A stretch of 64,000 nt of DNA from Selenomonadaceae bacterium. GTDB taxonomy: Bacteria; Bacillota; Clostridia; Oscillospirales; CAG-272. Position 1 is the stretch's first letter; every line of letters begins with the position of its first letter. Below are positions 2,263-62,738 of the stretch, piece after piece. The notes below the pieces were generated by a model, which ran no database searches, was not told the DNA's origin, and saw only the letters and a program-made list of their open reading frames with translations. Where the stretch lies: contig CAVBUH010000050.1 in assembly GCA_963598415.1 (NCBI GenBank), positions 14,189-78,188 of the forward strand, written 5' to 3'. The translations under genes and the position numbers were made by a program.

Positions 2263-2341
2263 ATAAGGCAATACCGCCGGGTTCACAGTTTGCGCCTTGA
2301 TGATGCATCTGCACCGTCAGAATCCGGCGGTATTGCCATAA
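2263..2341 (+). repeat. family A repeat, internally deleted copy A1
   Basis: ATAA|GGCAATACCGCCGGGTTCACAG..GCACCGTCAGAATCCGGCGGTATTGCC|ATAA, with the same 4 nt (ATAA) on both flanks. Confidence 0.8.
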
Positions 2342-2399
2342 AAAATCCCTCCGCAAAGTCTTGACTGTGTGAAGCAGTCATCTCAGCGAAGGGATTTTT
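2341..2399. terminator. possible bidirectional terminator hairpin between convergent genes
   Basis: AAAAATCCCT (2341-2350) pairs with AGGGATTTTT (2390-2399). An inner GACTG/CAGTC hairpin and flanking A/T runs are present. Confidence 0.4.
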
Positions 2400-2408
2400 G
2401 TATTATTT

Positions 2409-3230
2409 TTATTTCGGAAGATTTGAATAAGGAATTATGACAGTTTGAGTGCCAAGCGCATTCGGGGCTATGGAATAGGTGTTCAGAAAAAGAGTGACGC
2501 CGTCTTCGGACAGATAGTAGTTTTCCCCCGATACCTCGTTTGGGAGAAGCGCAAGTGCGTCGTCAAAAAAGTTTTCGGGATTGGAATTTATAATCACGGT
2601 GAAGGCGCTTATTATATAGTTTCTTGCATATTCCTCGTTTTTTTCGATATAATCCGCAAAGCTGAGCTGCTCTCCGGAGATAAGATCAAAGCAAAGGGCA
2701 TAGGTGAACCATAAGCTGTCGGCTCCGCCGCTCTGTTCATAGGAATCAAAGCGTACCGACAGGATATTTTCCCGCACATAGGCTGTGTAATCGGCAGTTT
2801 TCTCATACGGCTCAAATTCGATGGAATCCTCTTTTGCCGCATTGTAATCCTCTTTTGCCGCGGCTTTTTCCGAAGCTTTTATAGCAGTAAAGCTTTCGCA
2901 GTAAAGCTTCAGCGTGTTATTGATCTTTTCAAGATTATATTCTTTGTTTCCATCTATGACGGGGCGATTGATAGAGTATACTATAAGTGTGTCGCCGTTC
3001 AGCGAGTATTTATCAGAGACCGCCTCGGGCGTTACGGTGATATCGGCAGGCTCGGTATCGATGTCTCCGGAAGTCGGGAAGCTTTCGGAAGAGGTGATCT
3101 CTGCCGTTTCTGTTCCGGACTTTTGGGACTCGGTTTCGGGAGTTTTATCCTTTTGGGAGGAGCAGGAAATAAGGAAAGAAAGCGAAATTGCCGCAAGGAG
3201 GAAAAGAGCGATTTTTCTTTGTCTTTTCAT
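2409..3230 (-). CDS. lipoprotein of unknown function (possibly DUF3298/DUF4163-like)
   Basis: Signal peptide with lipobox (..SFLISCSS), then a T/S/E-rich linker. The domain resemblance is weak and judged by eye only. Confidence 0.6.
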   Translation of the reverse strand: MKRQRKIALFLLAAISLSFLISCSSQKDKTPETESQKSGTETAEITSSESFPTSGDIDTEPADITVTPEAVSDKYSLNGDTLIVYSINRPVIDGNKEYNLEKINNTLKLYCESFTAIKASEKAAAKEDYNAAKEDSIEFEPYEKTADYTAYVRENILSVRFDSYEQSGGADSLWFTYALCFDLISGEQLSFADYIEKNEEYARNYIISAFTVIINSNPENFFDDALALLPNEVSGENYYLSEDGVTLFLNTYSIAPNALGTQTVIIPYSNLPK

Positions 3231-3245
3231 TGCTTTTCCTTTCCG

Positions 3246-4070
3246 TCAGAGTTCCGACAGCGCAGCGCCGATAACGGTTGCAAATTGTGAATTATGAGGC
3301 ACGATATAATCGACTTCAAATGTTTTGTTGAGCGAATCAAAAATGTCATTTGCCTGAGGGATCGTGGTCATATTACCGGTCATAACGATTTTTCCTATGT
3401 TTTTGTCCCGTGAAGCAAAAAGGGCAAGCATTGCCACGCTTTCGAATATCATATTGATAAGACCGAGCGCCAAATCGTTTTTGGACGCAAGATCGCTCAG
3501 ATTTCCGAAGTTGGCGGCGGTAAGCTCCGAGGACAACATGCCGGGGATATCTTTTCGTGTTATGTCGCAGACGCGGAGATCCACATTGGAAAGCTTTCCG
3601 GACGAGGCAAGCTCAACAATATTCTGTATATCGGTGACGCCGAGCATTTTCCTTGCAAGACCGGAGAGCGTTCCTCCCCCGATTCCGGTGCCTCCGAGAT
3701 ATTCGATTTTTTTTCCGCGTTCCGCTTTGACAAGCGCGGTTCCGGTTCCCATACTTACAACAATTGCTTTGTCAAGTCCCGACAGATAAAGACCGCCCAA
3801 GCCAATACAGTTAAATTCTGAAACATGATGACATTCAAGACCGTAGAGCGGTTTGGTTAAATAGGAGGAGCCGACGCCGGTAACCATTACCTTCTCAATA
3901 TTTTTGAGTTCCAACTGATTTTCGTCCGTGAATTTGCCGAAAGCGCCGTATACCGCGGTAATCGGATCATTGGCTTTTACGAAGATCGGTTCGATGAGTT
4001 TCCCGCTTCGTTCAAATCCTACAATCTTTGTAGTGCTCCCGCCTACGTCAATACCGATAATAACTTTCAT
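3246..4070 (-). CDS. coaW: type II pantothenate kinase
   Basis: Start taken at ATG 4070 (MKVIIGIDVGGSTTKIVG). Fumble/PanK-II motifs VSMGTGTA, GGTGIGGGT and TAANFG. The longer ORF to 4142 only adds a non-conserved leader. Confidence 0.8.
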   Translation of the reverse strand: MKVIIGIDVGGSTTKIVGFERSGKLIEPIFVKANDPITAVYGAFGKFTDENQLELKNIEKVMVTGVGSSYLTKPLYGLECHHVSEFNCIGLGGLYLSGLDKAIVVSMGTGTALVKAERGKKIEYLGGTGIGGGTLSGLARKMLGVTDIQNIVELASSGKLSNVDLRVCDITRKDIPGMLSSELTAANFGNLSDLASKNDLALGLINMIFESVAMLALFASRDKNIGKIVMTGNMTTIPQANDIFDSLNKTFEVDYIVPHNSQFATVIGAALSEL

Positions 4071-4267
4071 TTTTTGCTGTTCATCCTTCCGGGATATTGG
4101 TAAAACTACTATTATTATAACACATAAGGAAATAATTTTCAACCGATAACTTAAAAAAGAGTGATTTGTCTGATATTGCCGAAACTATTGACTTTTTTAT
4201 ATTGTTGTGATATGATAAAAACATATATTGCTGATTTTCTTTTATGTTAACCGCGGGGGCAATTGAA

Positions 4268-5125
4268 ATGGAAAAAATATTTCCCGAAAACATTTTTACC
4301 GAACGGATAAGTCCGGATAAGGTGTATTATGAAACCAGAAATTTTATAAATAATGTATTGCCTTTTTCATTTCATATTGATATAATGGTGAACACCTCCC
4401 ATCATTATGTTCACAAGCACCGCGAGATCGAGATTTTATCGGGGATATCCGGTTCCGGGCAGGTGATTGCCGATTTAAAAACGATACCGGTTGACGAGAA
4501 CGAGATTGTCGTCATAAACCCCAACAAGGTGCATTATATCGTCTCCGATAATATTTTTAAGTATTATTGCCTTATCATCGATTCCGATTTTCTTGAAGCA
4601 AACGGAATTGATACCGAATCGGTTTATTTTAAAGATCATATTACCGATCCCTCGCTGACCGCTATGATTGAAAATCTTAATTCGGAATGGAAGAAGGATG
4701 ATGAATACCGGAATATGATGCTGAAATCCTGTGTTATCGGGATTATCGTAAACCTTTGCAGAAATCACCTTGTAAATGAGACTATGCTCGAAAAGGAAAG
4801 CAGAACGCTTCAAAAAATCAAGCACTCGATTAACTTCATAAAGAACAATTTCAGAAACGAGCTTACGCTTGACAATATCGCCGATGAAGCGGGACTCAGC
4901 AAATATCATTATTGCCGGGAATTTAAAAAAGCTACCGATCTTACTCCTGTGGAATTTATTAACAGAACACGATGTGAATTTGCCAAAAATCTTCTTGAAT
5001 CCAAGAAATACTCTGTTGCCGAGATCGGAGAGATGAGCGGCTTTTCAACATCTGCCCATTTTTCTAAGACGTTTAAAGGCTTTTTTGGGGTATATCCCTC
5101 CGACTATATGAAAAAAATGATGTAA
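4268..5125 (+). CDS. AraC family transcriptional regulator (cupin + double HTH)
   Basis: C-terminal AraC HTH (..LSKYHYCREFKKATDLTPVEFINRTR..SGFSTSAHFSKTFKGFFGVYPSDY). Start taken at ATG 4268 with a G-rich SD; 4244 is an alternative. Confidence 0.85.
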   Translation: MEKIFPENIFTERISPDKVYYETRNFINNVLPFSFHIDIMVNTSHHYVHKHREIEILSGISGSGQVIADLKTIPVDENEIVVINPNKVHYIVSDNIFKYYCLIIDSDFLEANGIDTESVYFKDHITDPSLTAMIENLNSEWKKDDEYRNMMLKSCVIGIIVNLCRNHLVNETMLEKESRTLQKIKHSINFIKNNFRNELTLDNIADEAGLSKYHYCREFKKATDLTPVEFINRTRCEFAKNLLESKKYSVAEIGEMSGFSTSAHFSKTFKGFFGVYPSDYMKKMM

Positions 5126-5138
5126 AAGGACAACTCAA

Positions 5139-6098
5139 ATGAAAATTTATATAAATAATAATACCGATCCGTATTTTAATCTTGCTTCCGAGCAGTATCT
5201 TCTTGATAACGAGACGGATGAGGTGTTCATGCTTTGGAGAAACGCCAAGGCGGTCGTTATCGGAAAAAATCAAAATGCATATGCGGAGATAAATAAACCT
5301 TTTGTTGATGAGCATGGAATTAAGGTGGTGCGCCGTCTGACGGGAGGCGGTGCCGTGTTTCATGATCTCGGAAACGTGAATTTTACCTATATAGTAGCAA
5401 GAGAGAATTGTCCGTCGCTTGATTTTGAACGCTTCAGCCGCCCTGTTATAGACGCGCTGCGGGATATCGGTGTGGAAGCGGAGCTTTCCGGAAGAAATGA
5501 TATCACTGTCGGAGGGAAAAAAATATCCGGTAATGCACAGTGTGTTTATAACAACAAGGTAATGCACCACGGAACATTGCTTTTTTCGGCCGATATGTCT
5601 CAAATGGCAGGGGCTCTTACTGTAGATGAGGAAAAGATCAGGAGCAAAGGGATTAAGAGTGTCAGAGCCAGAGTATGTAATATTTCGGAGCTTCTTCCGG
5701 ACATGGATGTAATTGCTTTCAAGGAGTATCTCGAAAACAAATTTGACGGTGATAAAAAGGAATTTTCCGACGGGCAGAAGGCGGAAATACAGCGCTTAAG
5801 GGACGAGAAGTATTCCACATGGGAGTGGAATTACGGCGTCTCAAAGGAGTACAACAGAAGGTGCAAAAAGTATTTTCCTTTCGGAACCGTTGATATCTCT
5901 CTGAATGCCGATCACGGCGAAATCAAAGAGGTGCGTTTTTTCGGAGACTATTTTGGGGTGAATGATATTTCAGTTGTTGAGCAGAGACTGATCGGGTGCC
6001 GCCTTGAAAAAGGAGAGATAGAGGAGCGTCTTTCGGACATAGAAAAATTTATCATGGGGGCGGATAGGTCTTCGATTTCCGGACTTATTTTAGGATAA
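5139..6098 (+). CDS. lplA: lipoate--protein ligase
   Basis: 319 aa with motifs RRLTGGGAVFHDLGN and GKKISGNAQ. C-terminal LplA accessory domain is present. Confidence 0.9.
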   Translation: MKIYINNNTDPYFNLASEQYLLDNETDEVFMLWRNAKAVVIGKNQNAYAEINKPFVDEHGIKVVRRLTGGGAVFHDLGNVNFTYIVARENCPSLDFERFSRPVIDALRDIGVEAELSGRNDITVGGKKISGNAQCVYNNKVMHHGTLLFSADMSQMAGALTVDEEKIRSKGIKSVRARVCNISELLPDMDVIAFKEYLENKFDGDKKEFSDGQKAEIQRLRDEKYSTWEWNYGVSKEYNRRCKKYFPFGTVDISLNADHGEIKEVRFFGDYFGVNDISVVEQRLIGCRLEKGEIEERLSDIEKFIMGADRSSISGLILG

Positions 6099-6217
6099 AA
6101 ACCGGAGGATGAAGGAATTTTCTATACCGATATTTTCCATACCGATAAGAATCTCGTAAAGACAGCTTGACAGTTTTCGCAGAGAAAATTTCTGTGCCGA
6201 CCGAACAGAGGCAGCAT

Positions 6218-6267
6218 AAAAGAGGTTAAACCGTGTTTTGAATCGGTTTAACCTCTTATTTATTTTT
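6218..6267 (+). terminator. rho-independent terminator of lplA
   Basis: 15-bp stem AAAGAGGTTAAACCG / CGGTTTAACCTCTT followed by ATTTATTTTT. Confidence 0.8.
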
Positions 6268-6420
6268 GGCAGCTCAAAAAAGTCACTGCTCAAATCCGGC
6301 TCGATCTGTTTTCCATCATTTGTCACTAAATTTCTTGTTAGATATACACTGTCTGCGGAATTTTGGTTTAGACTGACGAAAAATCTCTTTGCCGTCTATG
6401 AACATTGCATTTTTAGCGAT
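6268..6420 (+). repeat. family B interspersed repeat, copy B1 (degenerate termini)
   Basis: Aligns over its length with 8601-8761, 10402-10561 and 60595-60753 (..CGATCTGTTTTCC.TCATT.GTCAC..GACTGACGAAAAATCTCTTTGCCGTCTATGAACATTG..). Confidence 0.75.
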
Positions 6421-6603
6421 ATTCTTTATGCAATTACAAATGCTCGGAATTGCCGGATTTTGAATGAAAAAGTGAAAATACTGCCGTTTTACGGCTCCGT
6501 ATACATGCTCTCTGCAATCAGCTTAACGCTTCCGCGGTGTATCTTGAAAATTGCCGATGACAGCGAAGATGTGCAAGACGTAAGCGGCTTTTTTAGCTGG
6601 GAT

Positions 6604-7263
6604 TCATATCAGCTTTTTAAAATCCTCTGTCCCGTAAAGGATCATTTCGGCACCGAGCTGTTCCAAAAGCTCCTTCGGGCGGTATCCCCAGGAAACGCCG
6701 ACAGGGTGAAATCCAGCGTTGGTGGCGAGATGCATATCGACATCGGAGTCACCTATCAGAACGGTTTCCTCCGGCGTTCCCCCGAGAATTTTTGCTATAT
6801 AGAGGGCGCCCTCGGGAGAAGGCTTGTGCGGAAACTGACCGTTGTGACCGAGAACAAGCTCAAAGGTTCCCTCGGGAAAAAGCTTTGCACAGATTGCCTT
6901 TGTCTGGATATCCTGCTTGTTTGAGAAGACGGCAAGTCTTGCTCCCCTTTCTTTGAGATAGGCAATTCCTTCCGGGACGGCAGGATAGGGCTTTGTCGTT
7001 TTCAGATATTCCTCGGCATAATATTCCGAATATTTCGCGTATGCGCGATCAATGATCTCTTCGCTTTGGCGATATTCTTCAGGCAGACAGCCGGTAACAA
7101 ATACCCGCGCTCCGTTATTTATATTACGAAGCGTATCTTCTGCGGTAACCTCGCGCCAGCCGAAATACCGCAGCATACGGTTCATAGCCGACCTTAAATC
7201 TTCGATTGTATAGGCAAGCGTTCCGTCAAGATCGAATATAAAATATTTGTGTTTACAGTACAT
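6604..7263 (-). CDS. HAD family hydrolase (phosphoglycolate phosphatase-like)
   Basis: Motif I FDLDGTLAYT, a conserved K, and motif IV GDSDVD. 219 aa. Confidence 0.85.
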   Translation of the reverse strand: MYCKHKYFIFDLDGTLAYTIEDLRSAMNRMLRYFGWREVTAEDTLRNINNGARVFVTGCLPEEYRQSEEIIDRAYAKYSEYYAEEYLKTTKPYPAVPEGIAYLKERGARLAVFSNKQDIQTKAICAKLFPEGTFELVLGHNGQFPHKPSPEGALYIAKILGGTPEETVLIGDSDVDMHLATNAGFHPVGVSWGYRPKELLEQLGAEMILYGTEDFKKLI

Positions 7264-7284
7264 ATTGATATCTCCGTAAAATTT

Positions 7285-7866
7285 TCAGTCGGGCAATTCA
7301 TCGATCAAATCGATAAACCAATAGGGAAGATCCCTGTCGCAGTCGATAAGCCGCTTGTTTTCCAAAATCGCAATTTGCCTGAATTTCCGGGTGTTATCAA
7401 ACAATATCGCGTCATCGCATAACGGCAAAGCGGCTCTGAGATTATGATTGAGCTGAGAAAATCTTTTGATAATAAACTGATCTGCGATGCCGTGTCCGCC
7501 GTTTGCCATACGCTGATGTACCCGCTCGATGGCGACGTTTATATCGTCTATACCGATATAATAGAGGACGACCGTAAATCCGTGTTCCTTTGCGGAGTTG
7601 ATATGGCGGAGCATCGCCGCGCCGGGAAGCGTTGTTTCGATATGAAAAGATGTTCCTTCCTCAATGTATTTTGAGATAAGGTTCATTGCCGTTCTTCCGG
7701 CGTGTATATTGGCATACGGATCCTGATTTCCTCCGAATTGCTTTGCAAGCTCATCAATATTGATTCTTTTGCCGAGATTTTCACTTTGTCGGAGCACATG
7801 ATAGAGAGACGTTTTTCCGGCGCCGTTAATTCCGGCAATAACGGTAAATCTCTTTTCGGAACTCAT
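7285..7866 (-). CDS. zeta-toxin-like P-loop kinase (COG4185-type ATPase)
   Basis: Walker A GINGAGKTS. About 193 aa from ATG 7866 (MSSEKRFTVIAG..). The layout is typical of zeta toxin/AAA-like kinases. Confidence 0.75.
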   Translation of the reverse strand: MSSEKRFTVIAGINGAGKTSLYHVLRQSENLGKRINIDELAKQFGGNQDPYANIHAGRTAMNLISKYIEEGTSFHIETTLPGAAMLRHINSAKEHGFTVVLYYIGIDDINVAIERVHQRMANGGHGIADQFIIKRFSQLNHNLRAALPLCDDAILFDNTRKFRQIAILENKRLIDCDRDLPYWFIDLIDELPD

Positions 7867-8042
7867 AACAGTATTTCTCCGACGATTTTTTCCTGCGAAA
7901 GCTGCAGCTTCAGGTTTATCATTGCCCGGCAAAAGATTTTTTCCTCGCGTGAAGCGGCAGAGGAAAGCTCCGCCTCAAGTTCGGCAATGGTGATGTTCTG
8001 AAAATCTCTGTACATATCGGAGACCTTGTCTGATTGTTCCAT
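7863..8042 (-). CDS. small protein, candidate cognate antitoxin of the zeta-like kinase
   Basis: 59-aa ORF (MEQSDKVSDMYRDF..) with a GAAGGAA SD about 7 nt upstream of ATG 8042. Its TGA overlaps the kinase ATG (ATGA at 7863-7866). Confidence 0.45.
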   Translation of the reverse strand: MEQSDKVSDMYRDFQNITIAELEAELSSAASREEKIFCRAMINLKLQLSQEKIVGEILL

Positions 8043-8114
8043 GTTATATTCCTTCTTTGCTCTCAAGACGACTTTTGTGCCGGGAGGTGTATGAAAACAG
8101 TATGTATTATCGAT

Positions 8115-8452
8115 TTAAGGCAATACCGCCGGGTGCACAGCTAAGGCCTTTATTGCGATATGCTTGCCTCTATTCCGTCATACTTCACAAATTTCGTCGG
8201 CAGAGGAGTGACTCCTGCCTCCTTAATTTGTATTGTCTGACAAAAAAACCGGCGGCGCAGCGGGCTGTTGCGTTAAGCAACAAGCCCGACATTTTTCCGG
8301 TCAGGAAACCGGGAAAATGTCGAATCGGGTGTTTTTGACTGTATTTTCTTTGGATTATTATGAATTTAAATGGTCAAAATTGCGGATTTCACCCGCAAAA
8401 CCCGACTTCGTGGGGCAGTCGCACGTTAGTGCGACTGCCCCTATTGCCTAAA
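8115..8452 (+). repeat. family A repeat, copy A2, interrupted by a family C element
   Basis: Left end TTAAGGCAATACCGCCGGG and the conserved core CGTCATACTTCACAAATTTCGTCGGCAGAGGAG are present. The right terminus TATTGCC resumes only at 8442, after the C insertion. Confidence 0.8.
8261..8441 (+). repeat. family C repeat, copy C1 (inside A2)
   Basis: Near-identical over about 145 bp to the reverse complement of 45210-45354. Starts with the hairpin CGGGCTGTTGCGTTAAGCAACAAGCCCG. Confidence 0.8.
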
Positions 8453-8600
8453 AATTTTCCGCCGGACGAAACAAAATACCCATTGTTCGGACAGTGTATT
8501 ATCGGAGTTTTGTATCGTCCGGCGAAAAATATATTCAAAATCTGCTTTGATATCACAGCAGAAACGGTTTTACGGAACAGATACCGATTGAGTCATTTTA

Positions 8601-8761
8601 GGGAACCTCTAAAAAATTCACTGCCCGAATTCGGTTCGATCTGTTTTCCGTCATTCGTCACAAAAATTCTTGACAGAGGTTACACTGTCTGCGGAATTTT
8701 TGTTTAGATTGACGAAAAAATTTCTTTACCGTCTATGAACATTGAATTTTTAGAGATATCC
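8601..8761 (+). repeat. family B repeat, copy B2
   Basis: Termini GGGAACCTCTAAAAAATTCACTG / CATTGAATTTTTAGAGATATCC are inverted. The copy ends 2 nt from the prs stop codon. Confidence 0.85.
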
Positions 8762-8762
8762 T

Positions 8763-9935
8763 TTAAGTATTCTGACGCTGAACGTCTTTTTCGTTTTCCT
8801 TAACCTTTTCAAGCAGCGCCTGAATCCGCTCCGCGGGCTTTAGAAGGTGACTTATTGTTTCATCGCGGTTAAGCGTATCGACAATAAGAGCAACATATTT
8901 ACCGAGATCGACTTCTGCGTACCATTCGCGCGCCCGAAGCTCCGGAGAACGGTATATAAGGTTGGTAGTGAATATCTTGGTAAAAAGACCTTCCGAATAT
9001 GCCTTGTCCATGGAGTCAAGACCTTCACAGAAGAGTCCGAAGGTAGCAAAGGCAAAGATACGTTTTGCTCCCCGTTCCTTCAGATTGGTAGCGACGTCGA
9101 TGATTGATTGACCGGAGGATATAATGTCGTCTACAATGATTACGTCCTTGCCCTTGACGGAGCGTCCGAGATATTCGTGAGCTACGATCGGATTTTTTCC
9201 GTTTATGACCTGAGTATAGTCGCGGCGCTTATAGAACATACCGAGGTCAAGAGAAAGCATGGAGGAGTAATACATACATCTGGTCATTCCGCCCTCGTCG
9301 GGGGAAATCATCATCAGGTGGTCCTTATCAAGCTGCATGTCGGGTATTTTTTTTATAAGCGCTTTGATCATCTGATAGGTTGGCTGTACGTTGTCAAAGC
9401 CGATCAGGGGAATTGCATTCTGAATACCGATATTATGTACATCAAAGGTTACAATATTCGTAACCCCCATATTTTCAAGCTCTTTTAGGGCTACGGCGCA
9501 GTCAAGAGATTCCCTCACATGACGTTTATCCTGACGGCTCTCATAAAGCATGGGCATAATCACAGTAATGCGGCGCGCTTTTCCGGCTATGGCGTTGATA
9601 ACCCTTTTCAGGTCCGCGAAATGGTCATCGGGGCTCATCGGAAATTCGGCTCCGTACATTTTAAATTTAACGCCGTAGTTGTACATATCCGCTATGATAT
9701 ATACATCATGTCCCCGCATGGATTCATGAAGCACTGCTTTTCCCTCGCCGTTTCCGAATCTTTTGCACTCCGGAACAACGATGTAGGAGGTGCTTCCCCT
9801 GCTTCCTCTCCATTCATGCAGATAGTCGTCAACCTCCTCGACAAACTGTTCGCATCCGGGCATTCCTATTACCGACAATTCACCGTAATAAGTGTTTTCC
9901 ATCAGAAATAATGAGTCCGCTTTATGGGCAGACAA
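8763..9935 (-). CDS. prs: ribose-phosphate pyrophosphokinase (long clostridial-type form)
   Basis: Motifs ..RITVIMPMLYESRQDKR.. and the PRPP-binding loop VIIVDDIISSGQS. The start is uncertain (TTG 9935 or ATG 9902). Confidence 0.85.
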   Translation of the reverse strand: MSAHKADSLFLMENTYYGELSVIGMPGCEQFVEEVDDYLHEWRGSRGSTSYIVVPECKRFGNGEGKAVLHESMRGHDVYIIADMYNYGVKFKMYGAEFPMSPDDHFADLKRVINAIAGKARRITVIMPMLYESRQDKRHVRESLDCAVALKELENMGVTNIVTFDVHNIGIQNAIPLIGFDNVQPTYQMIKALIKKIPDMQLDKDHLMMISPDEGGMTRCMYYSSMLSLDLGMFYKRRDYTQVINGKNPIVAHEYLGRSVKGKDVIIVDDIISSGQSIIDVATNLKERGAKRIFAFATFGLFCEGLDSMDKAYSEGLFTKIFTTNLIYRSPELRAREWYAEVDLGKYVALIVDTLNRDETISHLLKPAERIQALLEKVKENEKDVQRQNT

Positions 9936-10198
9936 CTCCTTCCGTACTTACTATATAAGATACAATATACTATTATTCGATATAATTATATCATATATTT
10001 ATCGACTTATCAAGATGTGATTTCAGGTTTATTCATATTTTGACAAAAAAACAGCGACAAATTTAGGATTAACAATGCGGCGGATTTAGTGAAAAAGATA
10101 GAATCATGGATTTGCCTGTACAGAGAAGCAGTCTGAAAACAAACGGCTCCCCCTAACTGAAGACAAAGTATATTGCAGGGCTTCGTCTCATCTCTTGA

Positions 10199-10370
10199 TT
10201 AAGGCAGCAGCGTCGATTCGTGTCTTACGCCTTGACGGCAATCTGCCTCTCCGCTTCCCGTCATACTTCATAAATTTCGTCGGCAGAGGAGCTGCTCCTG
10301 TCTCCCGATATCGTCTGACCAAAATATGACTGCGCCTCTGTACCGTCAGAATCCGGCGGTATGTCCTTAG
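10199..10370 (+). repeat. family A repeat, copy A3
   Basis: TTAAGGCAGCAGCG..CGTCATACTTCATAAATTTCGTCGGCAGAGGAGCTGCTCCTG..ACCGTCAGAATCCGGCGGTATGTCCTTAG. Confidence 0.8.
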
Positions 10371-10401
10371 GAATTTTCGCCCTTGAGAATCTATTTTAAA
10401 A

Positions 10402-10561
10402 GGGCGCCTCTAAAAAACATTGCCCAAATCCGGCTCGATCTGTTTTCCGTCATTCGTCACAAAAATTCTTGACAGATGGTTACGCTGTCTGCAAAATTTT
10501 TGTTTAGACTGACGAAAAAATCTCTTTGCCGTCTATGTACACTGAATTTTTAGAGGTCCCC
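10402..10561 (+). repeat. family B repeat, copy B3
   Basis: Inverted termini GGGCGCCTCTAAAAAACATTG / CACTGAATTTTTAGAGGTCCCC, with a full-length internal match to B2 and B6. Confidence 0.85.
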
Positions 10562-10577
10562 TTTGATGAATCCGTCT

Positions 10578-12170
10578 TTACAGCGTTTCTATTTTTGCCG
10601 CTCCGTTTTTCATCAGATATTTTATGAAAATGAAAGAAACGGCAAAAACCAGAGCGTCGCAGAGCAGCAGGAACAGCGCGGTATTGAGAATTTCATCGAC
10701 GGCAAACCAAAGCACGCCGGCGGCTATGATGATTCCCCAATTGAGAAAAATCGAGAGCATAACGCTCATGCTTTGCTTTACCGCGACAGTCTCGTTGGTC
10801 CAATCAAGATTGGGAAATTTCAGATTCAGAGTAAGACCGAGTACGCCGAAGAGAAGGGAAAGTCCGCATGCCAGGACCGCGGAAAGAATTGCACTGATCG
10901 GATCCGAGGAAATAACGACGCTTAATATTGCGGAGCAGACGACTGCGGGAATAGCGGTAAGAATCATATGAAGCTTAAGCTTTGCTTTAAGAATCTGCCG
11001 GCCTCCTACCGGAAGCGACTGCAGAATCCAGAGATTTTTTCCCTCCAATGAGACCGAAGGGGCGGTAATCGTGTTTGTAGATATAAGAAAACCCAACAGT
11101 GCGCAGGCGATAAGCGGGAGTATTTCTGCCGCCCCCGGTATTTCCGCCGCTATGGCGTCGAGGCTGCTCTTTTTTATTGCGGCAAAAACAGCGCCGATGA
11201 TCATAATGATGGTACCAAGACCGCAGTTCAGCATATACACGGGACTTTTTCCGAATCTTATAAATTCTCGGCGTAAAAGCGCGCTGTCAGGGGAGCTTGT
11301 TTTCAGGACACGTTCTTTATAACGGATTTTTGCCGCGCCTTTCTTGGCCGAAGCGATTTTATGGAAGCTGAGTGACAGGATAAGATATACCGCGCCAAAA
11401 AGAACGGCGGTGATGCCGGTGAATATCAGAAAGGACAATCCGTTGCCAAGCGCTCCGCGTCCCATCTGAAAGAGAGGGTACAATGCATTTTTTATGTTTT
11501 TTCCGACGGCTTCGCTGTTTGCAATTAAAAGCTGCATCCAGGTATTGAGATTGGAATAAAGGTAAAAATATCCGCCGAGAAACCCAAGCGACAGAATTAT
11601 GCTTATAAGACTCTTGTTTCTCATTTTTGAGGAAATAAGAGCGATGAGCCATCCTAGTACACAGGTAAGGGCAAGACTCAGCAGGGGAAGAATAAGGAGG
11701 GTAAGGAGGAACAGCACGGCTTGAGAGACCGAGGGCGTGAAAAGCTTCCAGTGTGCTGCGGCGGTTGGCAGCAATATGAACGATTCGAAAAGCAGAGTTT
11801 GGATATACAAACCGAGCATACGGGCAAGCAAAATTGTACGGGAGGGAATCGGCATTGACAGCAAAAGCTCGTTATCTTTGGCGTCATACAACTGCGACTG
11901 TGTTGCGAAAACGCTTCCGATAACGCCGAACGCTGTAGCCATAAGTCCGCCGAGCGCATAATAAAGCCAACCCATTCCTGCCGATAGGAGAGGCTCGCAA
12001 ATAGAAGACATCATCATATAGAACACAAAAAACATTGCACCGAAGGCGTAAAGGAAAAGGAGCGCATATAAAAGCATGCTGAGCTTTGAACGTGGCTTTC
12101 CTCCCTTTTTGCCTCTGAAAAGGAAGGAGATCATTTCAAGAAGCTGTTTTTTTATCAGAGCCTTAGTCAT
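10578..12170 (-). CDS. ABC transporter permease (multi-pass membrane protein)
   Basis: About 530 aa and highly hydrophobic, with many predicted TM helices. ATG 12170 overlaps the ATPase stop by 8 nt (ATGACTAA). Confidence 0.7.
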   Translation of the reverse strand: MTKALIKKQLLEMISFLFRGKKGGKPRSKLSMLLYALLFLYAFGAMFFVFYMMMSSICEPLLSAGMGWLYYALGGLMATAFGVIGSVFATQSQLYDAKDNELLLSMPIPSRTILLARMLGLYIQTLLFESFILLPTAAAHWKLFTPSVSQAVLFLLTLLILPLLSLALTCVLGWLIALISSKMRNKSLISIILSLGFLGGYFYLYSNLNTWMQLLIANSEAVGKNIKNALYPLFQMGRGALGNGLSFLIFTGITAVLFGAVYLILSLSFHKIASAKKGAAKIRYKERVLKTSSPDSALLRREFIRFGKSPVYMLNCGLGTIIMIIGAVFAAIKKSSLDAIAAEIPGAAEILPLIACALLGFLISTNTITAPSVSLEGKNLWILQSLPVGGRQILKAKLKLHMILTAIPAVVCSAILSVVISSDPISAILSAVLACGLSLLFGVLGLTLNLKFPNLDWTNETVAVKQSMSVMLSIFLNWGIIIAAGVLWFAVDEILNTALFLLLCDALVFAVSFIFIKYLMKNGAAKIETL

Positions 12171-12876
12171 TTTTATCCTCCAATTCGAGGAATACCGATT
12201 CAAGAGAACCGTCTCCCTTTACCTCGTCCATTGTACCGGATTTAATCAGCTTTCCGTCCTTGATAATGGCAACCTTGTCACATAGCTTTTCGGCTACTTC
12301 AAGGACATGGGTAGAGAAAAAGATCGCATTGCCTTTATTGCATATTTCACGCATGATCTGTTTTAAAATATGTGACGCTTTCGGGTCAAGACCAACAAAC
12401 GGTTCGTCCATAATAATCAGCTTCGGTTCATGGAGCAGAGCGGATATTACGGTAAGCTTTTGCTTCATTCCGTGGGAATAAGCGCTGATCGGCTGAGCAA
12501 GGTCAGGAGTGAGCTCGAACAGGTCGGCATATTCCTTAATTCTCGCCTGACGGTCGCTCTGCGGCACGCCGAATATGTCGGATACAAAGTTGAGATATTG
12601 AATTCCGGTCATAAATTCGTAAAGATCGGGATTGTCGGGAATATAAGCAACCAATTTTTTACATGCAAGAGGCTGATCTTTTATCGATATTCCGTCGATA
12701 TAAATTTCGCCCGAATCGAAATTCATAATCCCGCAGCAGGCTTTTATGGTCGTTGTTTTTCCGGCGCCGTTATGACCGATAAAGCCGTAAATTTCTCCGT
12801 CTCCGATTGTGAGGGTGAGGTCGTCTACCGCCTTTTTATCGCCGTATTTTTTTGTCAGATGTTCAATTTTCAGCAT
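12163..12876 (-). CDS. ABC transporter ATP-binding protein
   Basis: Walker A GHNGAGKTT, signature SHGMKQKL, Walker B LIIMDEP. Start at ATG 12876 (MLKIEHLTKKYG). Confidence 0.9.
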   Translation of the reverse strand: MLKIEHLTKKYGDKKAVDDLTLTIGDGEIYGFIGHNGAGKTTTIKACCGIMNFDSGEIYIDGISIKDQPLACKKLVAYIPDNPDLYEFMTGIQYLNFVSDIFGVPQSDRQARIKEYADLFELTPDLAQPISAYSHGMKQKLTVISALLHEPKLIIMDEPFVGLDPKASHILKQIMREICNKGNAIFFSTHVLEVAEKLCDKVAIIKDGKLIKSGTMDEVKGDGSLESVFLELEDKND

Positions 12877-12895
12877 GGTATGCCGCCTTTCTTTA

Positions 12896-13057
12896 GGGTT
12901 GACTCTAAAATTTCTTCGCACAATGAATCGACCGAAGCTTTTCCGTTATTCGCCGCAAAAATTCTTTAGAGGGAAACCGTTTTGTGTGCGGATTTTTGCC
13001 CGGACCGACGAAAAATCTTCTCTGCGCTTATTGCATACAGAATATTCTGAGGTTCCC
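12896..13057 (+). repeat. family B repeat, copy B4 (divergent)
   Basis: GGGTTGACTCTAAAATTTC...GACGAAAAATCTTCTCTGCG...ATTCTGAGGTTCCC, collinear with B3. Lies 20 nt upstream of the ABC ATPase start codon. Confidence 0.6.
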
Positions 13058-13260
13058 TTTAATTTTTCAATTGATTGCAAGTCATCGTTTCCGTTTTAGA
13101 AGTCGGAATTGCTGCTTTACATTTTGTACAGTGTGAATTTGTTGTGCTCTTATTTGATTATATCATACAATCAAAAGATTGTCAATAGTAATCTAAAGAT
13201 TTTTCTTAAGCTGTCTTATAGAAAGCGGAATAAAAAGAGGGGATTTGTATTGATATAGGT

Positions 13261-13733
13261 AAATAATAATTTATTTTACTCTTGAAAGAGTGGGAACGTT
13301 TTCCGCATTTCTTTCTATAAAGAAAGAAACGCTCGCAAAGAAAGTTACAAGGTGGAGAACCGCTGCATTTCCCGAACGGAAATGCTACGCATGGTCCTCC
13401 CCCTTTGAACCCCCACTCCTATCTGGATGAAACCGTTTCTTCATTTTACAGAGGCAAAAACAAGCGTTAACTTGCGAAAATACGGTATTTTCCGTAAACT
13501 TTATCTGACGGTGAAATAGGAAAGAGGAGTTCCAAGGCAGTGACCGCTTTGCGGTAACGAGCAGTAACCGCTCCGCGGTAACTGCGGAAACCATGCGTAA
13601 GATTTTCGGGCTTTTTGTCCGAAAATCAAGCGGTTTCTTCCTTTGGTGACTTTCTTTGGAACTTTCTTTCTTCATAGAAAGAAAGTGGAAAGACATTCTC
13701 TTTCTCTTTCAAGAGTAATCTAAATTATTATTT
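13261..13733. repeat. long imperfect palindrome (arms about 135-145 bp, centre about 190 bp)
   Basis: Left arm 13261-13395 (AAATAATAATTTATTTTACTCTTGAAAGAG...GCTACGCATGGT). It is the imperfect reverse complement of the right arm 13590-13733 (ACCATGCGTAAG...CTCTTTCAAGAGTAATCTAAATTATTATTT). Confidence 0.8.
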
Positions 13734-13831
13734 GTCATCCCGTCCAGCATCCACCGAAGGAAATAATACTGCCCACACTAAAAAAGAAACACCGAGGCGA
13801 ATGGAATCGTTTTCGTGTTTCTTTTTCACTG

Positions 13832-13911
13832 TTAAGGAATCGCTGAACAAATCGGATATGCAGATTTCCGAGATGATTTATTGAACAGCAAGGCAAAAAA
13901 GCAGGAATATG
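13832..13911 (+). repeat. family E module, copy E1
   Basis: TTAAGGAATCGCTGAACAAATCGGATATGCAGATTTCCGAGATGATTTATTGAACAGCAAGGCAAAAAAGCAGGAATATGG. Matches 17101-17182, 42491-42569 and, in reverse, 45160-45210. Confidence 0.8.
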
Positions 13912-13949
13912 GTTAAGGCAATACCGCCAGGTTCTGACGGTATGCCTTA
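13912..13949. repeat. family A repeat, minimal copy A4 (termini only, 38 bp)
   Basis: TTAAGGCAATACCGCCAGGTTCTGACGGTATGCCTTAA, that is, only the two inverted termini between TTAA flanks. Confidence 0.75.
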
Positions 13950-14030
13950 ATATTTCAAGTTTTTTAACGATGACGGACAATCAATCTGCCCGAAAGATCC
14001 GTTGACGTTTTATTCAGTGATTCCTAAATA
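13950..14030 (+). repeat. family F module, copy F1
   Basis: TATTTCAAGTTTTTTAACGATGACGGACAATCAATCTGCCCGAAAGATCCGTTGACGTTTTATTCAGTGATTCCTAAATA matches 17363-17449. Confidence 0.8.
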
Positions 14031-14055
14031 AGTCATCTGATATCAAAGGCTGCTT

Positions 14056-15699: not shown

Positions 15700-15816
15700 T
15701 TATTTGCTTTCCTTCCGGACAATAATTAGTATATTTTCAAGACAATAACGCACAGTGCCCAGCGGCGCAGATATGCCGAAAAGGCATCAGCCGTGAATGG
15801 CGCGATATTGTCTTAA

Positions 15817-15974
15817 GGGGCTCCTCTAATAATTCAATGTTCACAGACGGCAAAGACATTTTTTGTCAGTCTAAACATAAATCCGGAGGCAGCGTAATCT
15901 CTGACAAGGATTTTTGTGACGAAGACCGAAAACAGCCTGAACCGGGTTTGTGCAGTGAATTTTTAGAGATTTCC
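15817..15974 (-). repeat. family B repeat, copy B5 (inverted orientation)
   Basis: GGGGCTCCTCTAATAATTCAATG...CAGTGAATTTTTAGAGATTTCC. The interior is the reverse complement of B2/B3. Confidence 0.8.
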
Positions 15975-16062
15975 TTAATAAAATTACCGGTTTCTATTTC
16001 AAAAATTTTTTCCGCAGCCTTTTCGCCTATCGGAAGAAAAAATTTATGCTCCTTTATATCCC

Positions 16063-16971: not shown

Positions 16972-17020
16972 AATAATATCTCCTTTTCACGAAAAATCAC
17001 GTTCCCGCTGTCCCGAGATG

Positions 17021-17104
17021 TTAAGGCAATACCGCGCTATGCAGCAGCAATTTTATATCTGCTGCTTCAGCGCACGATTCGTTTATTGTACGATGCTGCC
17101 TTAA
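17021..17104. repeat. family A-related short repeat, copy A5 (variant termini)
   Basis: TTAAGGCAATACCGCG...GATGCTGCCTTAA. The right end resembles the A3-type left end in inverted orientation. Shares its right TTAA with E2. Confidence 0.5.
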
Positions 17105-17182
17105 GGAATTGCTAAATCAATCGGCTATGCAGGTCTCCGAGATGATTTATTGAACGGCAAGGCAAAAAACACAGGAATATGG
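17101..17182 (+). repeat. family E module, copy E2
   Basis: TTAAGGAATTGCTAAATCAATCGGCTATGCAGGTCTCCGAGATGATTTATTGAACGGCAAGGCAAAAAACACAGGAATATGG. Confidence 0.8.
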
Positions 17183-17362
17183 TTAAGGCAACACCGCCGG
17201 GTTCACGGTTTGCGCTTTGATGATGCATCTGAGTGGCAATATCCCGTCATACTTCACAAATTTTTTCGGCAGAGGAGCCACCTCTTGTCTCCTCAATTGG
17301 TATCGTCTGACGAAAAACAGGACTGCGCCTCTATACCGTCATAACCCCGTGACATGCCTTAA
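17183..17362 (+). repeat. family A repeat, copy A6 (full length)
   Basis: TTAAGGCAACACCGCCGGGTTCACGG..CGTCATACTTCACAAATTTTTTCGGCAGAGGAGCCACCTCTTG..GACATGCCTTAA. Confidence 0.85.
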
Positions 17363-17449
17363 TACTTCAAGTTTTTTTAACGATGACGGGCAATCCAATC
17401 AATCTGCCGGAAAAATCCGTTGACGTTTTATTCAGTGATTCCTTAAATA
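17363..17449 (+). repeat. family F module, copy F2 (overlaps the hemZ 3' end)
   Basis: Matches 13950-14030. Its last 18 nt are the final codons and stop of the hemZ-like gene (..YLRNH*). Confidence 0.8.
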
Positions 17450-34976: not shown

Positions 34977-34979
34977 AAA

Positions 34980-57011: not shown

Positions 57012-57040
57012 TATAGCGATTATAAAACTCCGTTTTACGT

Positions 57041-57182
57041 CGGTTACGCTGCGGCAGGTTTACGCACGCTTATCGCCGCACCCAAATTACGGATTTTAGA
57101 CTCGTTCTCTCAGCGTGCAACCTCGCTTTGTTTGTCTTAAAAGTGTTTTTTCATCGAAAAATCCGCTGAAAAACAGAATGGA
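57041..57182 (+). repeat. family D repeat, copy D2
   Basis: CGGTTACGCTGCGGCAGGTTTACGCACGCTTATCGCC...CATCGAAAAATCCGCTGAAAAACAGAATGG is collinear with D1. Confidence 0.7.
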
Positions 57183-57243
57183 ATTATATTGCTGACCTTT
57201 ACAATCGGCTACTGATATACCGAAAGGAGCTTTTCCACGGAAA

Positions 57244-60427: not shown

Positions 60428-60594
60428 TAACGGTTTTCGCATTAAACGCCAACCGGACAAAAAGGCGGTCGGAAATCCGTCTTTTTGGTTATAACCCGGT
60501 CGGTTTTGCCTTGCTGTTTTCCGTTTTAGCTGTTACCATATCAGCACCGGCCTTCTGCCGGCAAGATTTGTGTCAGAAAAATCTCTTGTGTTAA

Positions 60595-60753
60595 GGGTGC
60601 CTCTAAAAAATCACTGCCCAAAACGGTTCGATCTGTTTTCTGTCATTCGTCACAAAATCCTTGTCAGATGGATACGCTGTCTCCGGGATTTTTGTTTTGA
60701 CTGACGAAAAAATCTCTTTGGCACCTATGAACATTGATTTTTTAGAGGCACCC
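60595..60753 (+). repeat. family B repeat, copy B6 (best-preserved termini)
   Basis: GGGTGCCTCTAAAAAATCA...TGATTTTTTAGAGGCACCC, a perfect terminal inverted repeat of at least 19 bp, flanked by TTAA/TTAA(T). Confidence 0.9.
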
Positions 60754-61193
60754 TTAATGAAATATTGTCAAAAATATCTCCTCCTCGGTACAGCGTTTTG
60801 CAATAAAACAAGAAAATCGATTGTTTTCCGGAGCAAATTCGAAGAAATCACAGACTTTAGGAGGGTATTCTAAAGGATAGTTTTGAAATAAATAGAACAC
60901 GGTCCCCTCGACAGGAAAAAGACAGTGAATTTTTTACGTTCTCTGTCTTTTTTCTCGTTTTCAAGCACCGTATTTGTGTCCATAGATACTCTAAGTGTAA
61001 AATAAAAATTGGCAAAAAGAGAGGAAAGAAGCCCTATGTAGTAAATATCCCTGTTGTAGATTTACGAATTATTTGTCGGTAAAACAAAATGCTTGGAAAC
61101 AGAACGAAAAAATACGTGATATTTGTACTTGCACGGATTAGGGAAGAAACGTTGAGACCGATGCAACGGAAACCAGAAATTGCGAAATGGTTT

Positions 61194-61246
61194 TTAAGGC
61201 AATACCGCACAATGATTATTGTACAGTTGCGCTGCGAATACCTTAG
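61194..61246. repeat. family A short copy A13
   Basis: TTAAGGCAATACCGCACAATGATTATTGTACAGTTGCGCTGCGAATACCTTAG. Confidence 0.65.
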
Positions 61247-61410
61247 AAAACATGGTATATCGCCCATATTATGCACTTTTGAATTATATTAGTTGTGAAC
61301 AATCAACAAAATATATAATATTATTTGTCTATTATGCAAATGGATTTTTTTGGAATATTATGATAGAATAATTTTACAGTTTACATCTTACTTGTATGAG
61401 GAGAAACAAA

Positions 61411-62451
61411 ATGAAAACTAAAAAAAATGAAAAAGTGCTTTTGTTTATTTTATCGTTTATGATAATGGCGTCGCTGTTATCGGTATCCATGTCGGTGTCG
61501 GCAAATACAAAAAGTCTTACCGCACGGAAAATTACCCAAGTACCAGACATAGACGGGGAAATGGAAGAGATGTGGGAAGAATGCGAGGTAGCGGAGGTAC
61601 TTAATTTTGGAAGCAATATCTTTCCAAATACTTCCACGGAAGCGGCAAATGAAGTCAATCCGGTAGCTACCGCAAAAGCAAGAGTAATGTGGGATGAAAA
61701 ACACTTATATCTCTTTGTTGAAGTATATGATACTACTCCCAACAAAGAGGCAAGCAAAACAAATTATGAGGACTGCGATATAGACAGCGTAGATATTCAA
61801 ATATCGGAATCCAATGCCCTTCATGAACCGATGAGAGATGATACTGTCGGAAAAGGTAATAAATATCCCGGAAACGGAATATTTAACGTAAATATAAACG
61901 GTTACATATCCGGATGGGGCGGCGTATGGTATGCGGGTAGCGGAGCTACCGAAGTAAATGCGGAGGCAGTTATCACAAATTACGGATATTGTTTTGAAAT
62001 GGTTCTCCCGCTTCAGACAATTACAGCAGATGTCGGAACTACCATAGGATTAGAGTTTCAGATTAACGACAATCAGGATGGAACCGGACGCACCGCAATC
62101 AGACAATGGAGTTGTGCAGAATGTTTAGCACATTCCGATACGATTTATCTGGGAGAGCTTGTACTTGTAGGTGAAAACGGAGAAACGGCTCCTCAAACAA
62201 CGGAACCGCAAACAACAGAGCTGCCAACAACGGAACCTCAAGCAACAGAGCCGCAAACAACGGAACCTCAGACCTCCAAAAATCCAGAAATCTCCGATAC
62301 ATCTAAGGTAACGGCAGAAAATACCGAGACCAAGAATGGCAATGTGAGCGATGATGACGACGGAGGTTTTCCGATATGGATTCCTATTGTAGTTATTGCC
62401 GCCGCCGCGATTGTTGTAGTCGTAATCGTGATCGTCAAGAAGAAAAAGTAA
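61411..62451 (+). CDS. surface-anchored CBM9-like carbohydrate-binding protein
   Basis: GAGGAG SD then ATG 61411. Signal peptide, then ..IDGEMEEMWEECE..AKARVMWDEKHLYLFVEVYD.. and ..GLEFQINDNQDG.. (family 9 CBM-like). TEPQT repeats, C-terminal TM and KKKK. Confidence 0.6.
   Translation: MKTKKNEKVLLFILSFMIMASLLSVSMSVSANTKSLTARKITQVPDIDGEMEEMWEECEVAEVLNFGSNIFPNTSTEAANEVNPVATAKARVMWDEKHLYLFVEVYDTTPNKEASKTNYEDCDIDSVDIQISESNALHEPMRDDTVGKGNKYPGNGIFNVNINGYISGWGGVWYAGSGATEVNAEAVITNYGYCFEMVLPLQTITADVGTTIGLEFQINDNQDGTGRTAIRQWSCAECLAHSDTIYLGELVLVGENGETAPQTTEPQTTELPTTEPQATEPQTTEPQTSKNPEISDTSKVTAENTETKNGNVSDDDDGGFPIWIPIVVIAAAAIVVVVIVIVKKKK
62191..62276 (+). repeat. 15-bp tandem repeat inside the CBM9-like gene (about 5.5 units)
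   Basis: CCTCAAACAACGGAA CCGCAAACAACAGAG CTGCCAACAACGGAA CCTCAAGCAACAGAG CCGCAAACAACGGAA CCTCAG encodes (PQTTE)n. Confidence 0.85.
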
Positions 62452-62558
62452 TCGCGGACAGAGAGGTTTTCAACGAAGTTGTAGAGCCGTGAAACGCAAT
62501 TTTCGGCTGAAGTATAATATCCTCAGAACGTCATCCTTAATGGGTGGCGTTCTTTTGC

Positions 62559-62738
62559 TTAAGGCAATACCGCACAATGATTGTTGTGCAGTTGCGCCGC
62601 CGGATTTTTCGTCAAACAATACAAATTGAGGAGGCAAGAGTGACTCCTCTGCCGACGAAATTGGTGAAGTATGACGGAATAGATGCAAGCAAATGCGCAA
62701 TAAAGGCGTTAGCTGTGCACCCGGCGGTATTGCCTTAA
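62559..62738 (-). repeat. family A repeat, copy A14 (inverted orientation)
   Basis: TTAAGGCAATACCGCACAATG...GAGGAGGCAAGAGTGACTCCTCTGCCGACGAAATTGGTGAAGTATGACGG...CACCCGGCGGTATTGCCTTAA. Confidence 0.85.

Follow-up and report, generated by a model that had tools for sequence, protein, structure and literature searches.

The locus and its dominant repeat

The DNA analysed here, hereafter the window, is a stretch of 64,000 nucleotides (positions 14,189 to 78,188) of contig CAVBUH010000050.1 in assembly GCA_963598415.1. It is ordinary chromosome of an uncultured member of the Clostridia. It carries alaS, relA, recJ, dtd, cdaA, ftsK, recD2, mreB, uppP and similar genes, together with one tRNA-Ala gene. 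We kept 50 open reading frames (ORFs) on the gene map, either Pfam-scanned or with Pfam matches on strain contigs. The subject of this work is family A, a short repeat with inverted termini and TTAA flanks, which is scattered among these genes.

The first-pass annotation, made from the sequence alone, had listed 15 intervals and spoken of at least 15 copies per 64 kb. The window contains the 14-nt terminus GGCAATACCGCCGG (at most 2 mismatches) 12 times, where 0.40 occurrences would be expected, and none of 100 shuffles reached 12. An unsupervised repeat search of the window recovered family A independently. Likewise, an nhmmer profile seeded with eight full-length copies matched all 15 intervals and added one left-end fragment at 15766-15816 on the minus strand. 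This gives 16 family A matches per 64 kb, which bears out the earlier count. Some of the intervals needed changes. The copy placed at 13912-13949 lies at 13913-13950 (TTAA...TTAA, 38 nt). The interval 8115-8452 had been taken as one copy, but only 8115-8260 is family A (positions 1-148); the rest is a repeat of another family, D, and a remnant right terminus. The interval 42570-42690 does belong to family A, but it is truncated and covers only profile positions 1-88. The matches, with the family D repeat that adjoins one of them, are as follows.

2263-2341, plus strand: short copy with both termini, 79 bp, flanked by ATAA/ATAA (terminus scan, reading, profile; in 10 of 10 strain contigs)
8115-8260, plus strand: copy with profile positions 1-148, its right part replaced by another repeat (strain contig L292 is intact here)
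8261-8452, plus strand: family D repeat (8261-8437) and remnant family A right terminus CTATTGCCTAAA (repeat search; reverse-complement copy at 45215-45354)
10199-10370, plus strand: full copy, flanked by TTAA and TTAG (reading, profile)
13913-13950, plus strand: minimal copy of 38 bp with nothing but the termini, inserted in a family C copy at its TTAA (profile)
15766-15816, minus strand: left-end fragment; TTAA 15813-15816 common with a family B copy (profile)
17021-17104, plus strand: short copy, 84 bp; TTAA 17101-17104 common with family C (reading, profile)
17183-17362, plus strand: full copy nested in family C, TTAA on both sides (reading, profile)
29145-29324, plus strand: full copy directly upstream of the tRNA-Ala promoter (profile, promoter scan)
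31984-32035, plus strand: short copy (reading, profile)
32032-32096, minus strand: short copy from two right-type ends; TTAA 32032-32035 common with the preceding copy (repeat search, profile)
32784-32964, plus strand: full copy, right-end variant 2 (reading, profile)
34980-35157, plus strand: full copy with decayed right flank AAAA (reading, profile)
42570-42690, plus strand: copy truncated past profile position 88, abutting a family C left half (reading, profile)
45435-45613, minus strand: full copy; synteny with contig L293 stops exactly at 45435 (profile, contig alignment)
61194-61246, minus strand: short copy, variant-2 end (reading, profile)
62559-62738, minus strand: full copy near the consensus; synteny with contig L261 stops exactly at 62559 (profile, contig alignment)

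The inverted termini and the core CGTCATACTTCACAAATTTCGTCGGCAGAGGAG-N4-CTCCTGCC with its hairpin read as first described. The same is true of ATAA on both sides of the first copy and of the single TTAA that two adjacent short copies have in common. On the gene map all the repeats are intergenic, as had been claimed, but the copy at 31984-32035 lies inside the longest-ORF extension of an amidohydrolase gene. On strain contigs the start of this gene is called further in. The exception is L217, where a 468-amino-acid call runs through the copy. Spurious ORF calls across copies also occur, for example one of 148 amino acids over the copy at 34980. Repeats, whatever their family, take up 4.4 kb of the window, entirely within the 12.4 kb that are intergenic on the gene map. 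The earlier statement that nearly every gap longer than 150 bp carries family A was too strong. Such gaps number 22, and A is found in 14 of them, A or B in 16.

We enlarged the sample by scanning metagenome contigs with the 20-nt terminus. This gave 85 loci (586 kb), with 188 matches to family A and 33 to family B. Together with the window and a locus of a sister species (L220, GCA_964311565.1, 85% amino-acid identity), they supply 130 distinct full-length A copies and about 0.67 Mb of lineage DNA for searching. Family A ranges in size from 38 to 181 bp. Its consensus, built from the 130 copies, has 180 positions and no coding capacity. The terminal inverted repeats are about 20 nt long (GGCAATACCGCCGGg/aTTC). 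They read TTAAGGCAATACCGCCGG(G/A)TTC ... GAATCCGGCGGTATTGCCTTAA, and their terminal positions are at least 90% conserved. Two right-end variants exist within the family, and the short copies consist of two ends.

Three families that insert into one another

Family A is one of at least three families, A, B and C, that insert into one another. All three end in TTAAGG...CCTTAA. This had been overlooked in the first-pass annotation, and so had an internal core common to A and B. Family B is about 165 bp long and has its own inverted repeats, TTAAGGGnnCCTCTAAAAAATCA...TGAATTTTTAGAGGnnCCCTTAA; next to the duplicated TTAA its tips read GGGnnCCTCTAAAAA... Family C is about 170 bp long, with termini TTAAGGAATCGCTGAAT...ATTCAGTGATTCCTTAA and tips GGAATCGCTGAAT... 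at the same place. In the window, six copies of B are present, and C is seen only where A abuts or interrupts it.

6268-6429, plus strand: family B copy, about 165 bp, with its own termini TTAAGGGnnCCTCTAAAAA... and the core common with A (repeat search, profile)
8600-8766, plus strand: family B copy (profile)
10401-10565, plus strand: family B copy (profile)
12898-13062, plus strand: family B copy, diverged (profile)
15813-15975, minus strand: family B copy (profile)
60594-60758, plus strand: family B copy (profile)
13832-14028, plus strand: family C copy with termini TTAAGGAATCGCTGAAT...ATTCAGTGATTCC, split by the A copy at 13913-13950 (repeat search)
17101-17446, plus strand: family C copy interrupted by A at 17183-17362 (repeat search)
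42492-42569, plus strand: left half of a family C copy, with the truncated A copy after it (repeat search)
45167-45210, minus strand: family C fragment (repeat search)

The core common to A and B spans about 80 nt and reads TTTTCCGTCAT.C..CACAAA..TT..T.G.CAGA.G...CTG.C...TTTGT.T.G.CTGACGAAAAA. It is the best-conserved internal part, and the two families have it in common despite their differing ends. In the lineage DNA, a profile of the core finds only two weak extra matches beyond the A and B copies. A palindromic stretch at 8454-8531 of the window (ATTTTCCGCCGGACGAAAC...GTATCGTCCGGCGAAAAATA), outside the A and B copies, matches the core profile weakly (E = 0.002).

Family D is a repeat of two copies, at 8261-8437 (plus strand) and 45215-45354 (minus strand). 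It contains several GC-rich hairpins, such as GGGCTGTTGCGTTAAGCAACAAGCCC and GGGGCAGTCGCACGTTAGTGCGACTGCCCC. One of its copies stands in place of the right part of a family A copy.

Target-site duplication at TTAA

TTAA is present on both sides of 88 of the 130 full-length A copies (68%), and most of the others are off by one base on one side. Since TTAA is palindromic, these flanks alone cannot separate a part of the inverted repeat from a target duplication. The first-pass annotation had taken the 4-bp flank as duplicated target and not as part of the element. Nested insertions, which provide paralogous empty sites, and direct non-palindromic flanks both uphold this.

The nested insertions are of two kinds. 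Uninterrupted copies of family C (L288:8639-8797 and L233:1960-2128) have a single TTAA, in the context ...GGAATATGG-TTAA-TATTTCAAG... Two more C copies (L233:571-726 and one in L280) have TTCA at the position of the A insertion. The interrupted copies (window 13913, window 17183, L241:7969 and L259:8533) read ...GGAATATGG-TTAA-[A]-TTAA-TATTTCAAG... Family B, for its part, is found inside the A core at ACTTCACAAA. Intact A reads CATAC-TTCA-CAAATTT there, with one TTCA. The interrupted copy in L294, whose insertion is seen again in L299, reads gtgc-TTCA-[GGGTACC...GATACCC]-TTCA-caaatttt. In L289, B lies in the A core in the opposite orientation with TGAA/TGAA, and in L239 the flanks are TTTA/TTCA. 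The flank of B in A is thus the target's own sequence, different from TTAA, and so the four bases are not element sequence.

Direct repeats of non-palindromic flanks are ATAA/ATAA (window 2263), TTAG/TTAG (L221:5173), TTTA/TTTA (five distinct B copies) and TTAT/TTAT. An inverted-repeat tetranucleotide would appear on the opposite side as its reverse complement and not in direct repeat. Abutting elements, in the combinations A/A, A/B and B/A, have exactly one TTAA in common (including window 32032, 15813 and 17101), as would be expected if the flanks of the resident copy were re-used as targets. Outside the four bases the flanks are AT-rich and present no further motif.

Distribution and age of the copies

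The density is about one A copy per 4-6 kb, with 16 in the 64 kb of the window and 103 non-seed copies in the 586 kb of metagenome loci. At this density, a genome of a few megabases would hold several hundred copies. An inflation of non-coding DNA by the repeats, compared with related species, was considered and dropped; non-coding DNA makes up 19% of the window and 7-23% in the related species.

The sister-species locus contains 4 A copies in 20.7 kb, beside genes that are absent from the window. For more distant comparison we gathered 80 loci of related species through the neighbouring AP-endonuclease gene. These relatives are metagenome-assembled genomes (MAGs) from the gut of humans and ruminants, with the labels Eubacteriales, Oscillospiraceae or Clostridia, and the best species representative has 80% protein identity. 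Among these 80 more distant species there is one diverged A-like element (L077), without TTAA flanks. An A or A-like element lies directly upstream of aroQ, in the same orientation, in the sister species (L220, 2390-2568) and in L077, a distant rabbit-gut MAG (2870-3032). In L220, a perfect TTGACT-17-TATAAT promoter stands between the element and aroQ. In viral contigs, the 15-nt terminus gave only chance matches and the 20-nt terminus none. A literature search for a TTAA MITE (miniature inverted-repeat transposable element) in Firmicutes found none. The view that this is not a named family therefore stands, with no Rfam match and no paper found that describes such an element. So far as literature searches show, family A is undescribed.

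The 130 distinct full copies have a mean pairwise identity of 0.71, and the median identity to the nearest neighbour is 0.91. We checked the presence of copies in strain contigs, which come from other samples and are 99.5-100% identical to the window. Nine copies could be checked (2263, 15766, 17021, 17183, 29145, 31984, 32032, 32784 and 34980), and each is in every spanning contig. A minority subfamily, similar in sequence to the copy at 62559-62738, yields 31 pairs that are 93-98% identical although their flanks differ on either side. Such pairs at different loci mean that transposition went on past the main expansion. So, most copies are old and fixed within the species, and a minority subfamily is younger. 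The first-pass annotation had spoken of recent or ongoing mobilisation. As a general statement this is not supported.

Loss of synteny at family A copies

Of four metagenome contigs that overlap the window, three cease to be syntenic with it at a family A copy. L292, which is 99.7% identical over 2406-8258, has an intact A copy where the window has truncated A and family D, and different genes lie beyond. For L293 (97.1%) the point of divergence is exactly 45435, at the outer TTAA of an A copy. Likewise, L261 (98.8%) diverges exactly at 62559, the border of another. This coincidence suggests that the copies promote rearrangement or mark the borders of variable regions. Assembly chimeras may account for the breaks, although they would be expected to switch inside a shared repeat and not at its edge.

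Other observations concern the same borders or similar junctions. For the contigs of 97-99.7% identity, namely L292, L293/L266 and L261/L267, synteny ends inside family A copies or exactly at their border (8258, 45435 and 62559). Next to the border at 45435, a TerB_N/TerB_C protein and then a BrxC/BrxD-type ATPase (E = 4.9e-158) are encoded at 45924-49132; both are of defence type. In L212, which is 99.98% identical, positions 1-141 are foreign DNA joined at the TTAA of window 32773-32776, 7 bp from the A copy at 32784. At its end the foreign DNA has ...TGTAAGTCTAAAATATTTGCGGAACTATAG|TTAA, and L212 extends no further; the sequence has no match in the other loci compared. Finally, a 22-nt 5' fragment of tRNA-Lys(CTT) lies at 34617-34638 (minus strand), upstream of a gene for 224 amino acids. 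L211 has tRNA-Thr, an intact tRNA-Lys, the same 22-nt fragment and then wholly different upstream genes, so that synteny breaks at the tRNA fragment.

What the copies are

Family A is very probably a non-autonomous cut-and-paste DNA transposon, that is, a MITE. It would duplicate TTAA, belong to a superfamily with B and C, and be mostly old, with uncultured gut Clostridia as its host. The first-pass label of MITE-like element agrees with this. The copies are small, non-coding, numerous and dispersed, with terminal inverted repeats and a target duplication. Insertion would take place at TTAA, or less often at one-off variants, among them TTTA, TTCA, ATAA and TTAG, and those 4 bp would be duplicated. 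One transposase, or close relatives, may have moved A, B and C in trans, as suggested by the GG...CC tips that all three have next to TTAA. Each insertion would make two new TTAA sites, from which abutting elements with one TTAA and nesting would follow. Copies persist only between genes, in either orientation and in every intergenic context. Such a pattern fits selfish DNA under purifying selection and not a strand-specific host function.

Several results weigh against this reading. No autonomous element was found in Pfam scans of the ORFs in the window, where the first-pass annotation had rightly reported no transposase. In the lineage DNA, a parent search for TTAA plus 18-nt inverted repeats spaced 0.6-4 kb apart returned only pairs of separate MITEs. 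A tblastn search of the same DNA with InsH1 found no homologue of the IS5 transposase InsH; its only match came from L054, an unrelated MAG. Two unannotated genes enclosed by inverted A copies encode a lipoprotein with paralogues and a membrane protein, not a transposase. Between strains, there is no presence/absence polymorphism at the nine checked copies (contigs at least 99.5% identical), and no clean orthologous pair of filled and empty sites was found among strain contigs and relatives. The composites of A in C and of B in A may each go back to a single event, with later spread of the whole composite, so that the independent insertion events seen are few. Finally, most copies would have the same flanks whether 4 bp or only the TA (2 bp, inside T_A) had been duplicated.

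The last point bears on the length of the duplication. The models can be told apart only where an outer base departs from T or A. Four cases separate them, namely ATAA/ATAA, TTAG/TTAG, TTAT/TTAT and ATAA/ATGA, and they favour 4 bp. The 2-bp model could accommodate each of them only with a coincident mutation of the terminal base of the element. The case ATAA/ATGA fits 4 bp with one further change at an inner position. On the other side, ten pairs differ only at the outer base. This is what the 2-bp model expects, and single-base decay would explain it as well. Flank mismatches number 10, 8, 6 and 2 from the outermost to the innermost position, and they are not significantly uneven. Because the informative cases fit 4 bp without any change to the terminal base of the element, we read the duplication as 4 bp with moderate confidence.

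The family may be orphaned, since the searches turned up no autonomous partner. In the lineage loci we detected no multi-copy segment of 500 bp or longer. Layouts like that of a composite transposon, with inverted A copies around single genes, are present at window 32032-32964, L259 5097-7025 and L275 6700-8148. The bracketed genes encode a protein of 207 amino acids and unknown function, the lipoprotein with paralogues and the membrane protein; none is a transposase. One candidate for a filled and empty pair, L241 against L220, was rejected, since its intergenic DNA is too diverged to read.

The copies could also be host-selected palindromes that act in RNA, as terminators, attenuators or stabilising hairpins of the sort proposed for REP/BIME, ERIC and Correia. 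We regard this as quite improbable, although it has points in its favour. A full copy folds far better than shuffles on either strand (z = -5.3 as DNA, -5.5 and -6.1 as RNA), as nested inverted repeats would lead one to expect. Strong consensus promoters lie just outside copies, at 29340-29368 after the copy 29145-29324 and at 45892-45920, and the diverged A-like element upstream of aroQ, in L220 and in the distant L077, points the same way. In the window, the copies avoid the three divergent promoter gaps. This window-only pattern (mostly antisense, absent from divergent gaps) was rejected when it vanished in the larger sample, where 111 A copies and 28 B copies had scorable neighbours. By gap context, A copies number 34 (++), 41 (--), 19 (+-) and 17 (-+), against 150, 185, 64 and 61 baseline gaps. 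Divergent and convergent gaps are thus occupied 17 to 19 (baseline 61 to 64). In tandem contexts orientation is unbiased, with 40 antisense to 35 sense for A and 12 to 10 for B. A terminator consensus scan flagged no family A copy and showed no excess over shuffles in window positions 1-20000, and no T tract follows the hairpins. Neither a terminator nor an RNA-stability role, as proposed in the first-pass annotation, is borne out, and a strand-specific host function is not supported. Target duplications and nesting would also be left unexplained. The idea is compatible with a secondary exaptation of individual copies.

It is very improbable that the copies encode structured small RNAs or act as cis-regulatory RNAs, with the core of A and B as functional part. 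The core is indeed the best-conserved part and is common to two families with different ends. A few pairs of the central hairpin (65-127, 80-112 and 90-101) also exceed the independent expectation, although weakly. The conserved structured RNA that the first-pass annotation had named as its own alternative is not supported. Rfam gave no match at the gathering score, nor at E <= 1 over five copies, and RNAalifold gave no consensus structure across the 130 copies. The fold of one copy supplied 57 pairs; across these, the fraction paired is close to the independent-column expectation, and double changes are rare. There is no orientation preference, and the promoter scan found no promoter consensus inside family A. 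Another reading concerns REP/REPIN- or PATE-like palindromes, moved as single strands by a Y1 transposase (IS200/IS605 or RAYT-type) without duplication, so that the TTAA at the far end would be borne by the element. The minimal copies (38-84 bp) are simple hairpins, and the elements are very palindromic with a fixed tetranucleotide at both ends. Nevertheless, this reading is extremely improbable. Flanks other than TTAA repeat directly (TTCA/TTCA, TGAA/TGAA, TTTA/TTTA five times, ATAA/ATAA, TTAG/TTAG), as a target duplication predicts. Moreover, terminal inverted repeats of 20 nt are typical of DDE elements and not of IS200/IS605 ends, and Pfam scans of the window found no Y1 transposase.

A bolder version of the transposon reading, which we consider unlikely, takes A, B and C as footprints of an undescribed TTAA-specific transposase lineage in gut Clostridia, not recognisable as a relative of IS5 or IS630. 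The 80-nt core would then be a functional cis module whose sequence selection, and not descent alone, has preserved. It might bind the transposase or a DNA-bending protein of the host internally, or serve as an exapted regulatory element.

Other features of the window

A further conserved intergenic unit of about 120-170 nt, unrelated to families A-D, is present at three places. Its orientation to the next gene is mixed. It reads CTGCGGCAGGTTTAyGCACGCTTAyCGCCGCA...ACAGATTTT...CCTCTCAGTGTGCG..CTCGCTTT, and the copy at 34.8 kb has no Rfam match at E <= 1. A tandem repeat in coding sequence was also seen.

57016-57186, plus strand: conserved unit
34846-34982, plus strand: conserved unit
42700-42806, minus strand: conserved unit
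62184-62279: 5-6 tandem 15-nt coding repeats inside the CBM9-domain gene 61396-62451

Relation to known systems

Family A resembles the bacterial MITEs, such as Correia/CREE of Neisseria, RUP of Streptococcus pneumoniae, Nezha of cyanobacteria and MITEAba12. They are likewise small and non-coding, with inverted repeats and short duplications. They occur in both orientations, form internal-deletion derivatives and mosaic subfamilies, and fold strongly. Their parent is often missing, and their intergenic copies run into hundreds, as expected here. However, the sequence of A is unrelated to theirs. Family A duplicates TTAA (best read as 4 bp), whereas families derived from IS630 duplicate TA and MITEAba12 duplicates 9 bp. 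The inverted repeats of A, B and C differ from one another and have only the GG...CC tips in common, unlike in usual MITEs. A and B share an internal core and not their ends, which is the reverse of the usual MITE pattern. More bacterial MITEs stem from the IS630 family than from any other source.

Among insertion sequences, two give TTAA direct repeats. ISKpn26, of the IS5 family, makes a 4-bp duplication of TTAA (PMC10569121). Ends of the IS5 group start with GG, as those of A do; in IS5A of E. coli K-12 they are GGAAGGTGCGAA..., with GGAAGG. Family A combines a 4-bp duplication at a YTAR-type site with GG...CC ends, as a MITE derived from the IS5 family would. Nevertheless, the inverted repeats are unalike beyond GG and the lineage DNA contains no InsH-like transposase, so that derivation from an IS5-like parent would be only a lead. 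ISHsp2, an atypical member of the IS630 family from Halomonas, has 4-bp TTAA direct repeats (PMC3606827). An IS630 member can therefore make TTAA duplications. Its host is a gammaproteobacterium, unlike the Clostridia that carry A.

Like A, the eukaryotic piggyBac superfamily targets TTAA (strictly), duplicates the 4 bp and re-uses the TTAA at its flanks. This is a resemblance of target only. Next to TTAA, piggyBac ends in CCC...GGG and family A in GG...CC. REP/BIME, and REPIN with RAYT, are abundant intergenic palindromes in mosaics, like A. REPs lack long terminal inverted repeats and leave the target unduplicated, whereas A has duplications. In REP/REPIN the tetranucleotide is borne by the element and not duplicated; in A and B the four flanking bases vary with the target and are directly repeated.

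Significance

What raises this family above the routine is its TTAA specificity, the core common to families with different ends, and the coincidence with synteny breaks between strains. With all repeat families counted, the repeats make up about a third of the intergenic DNA of the window, and many metagenome contigs of the lineage end in them. For both reasons, models of these families would help assembly, binning and annotation. Copies at the exact points where strains of 97-99.7% identity lose synteny are candidate drivers of rearrangement. The work documents three cross-inserting families and an element system that duplicates TTAA, a kind of target seldom met in bacteria. Discovery of the partner transposase would yield a compact TTAA-specific bacterial system.

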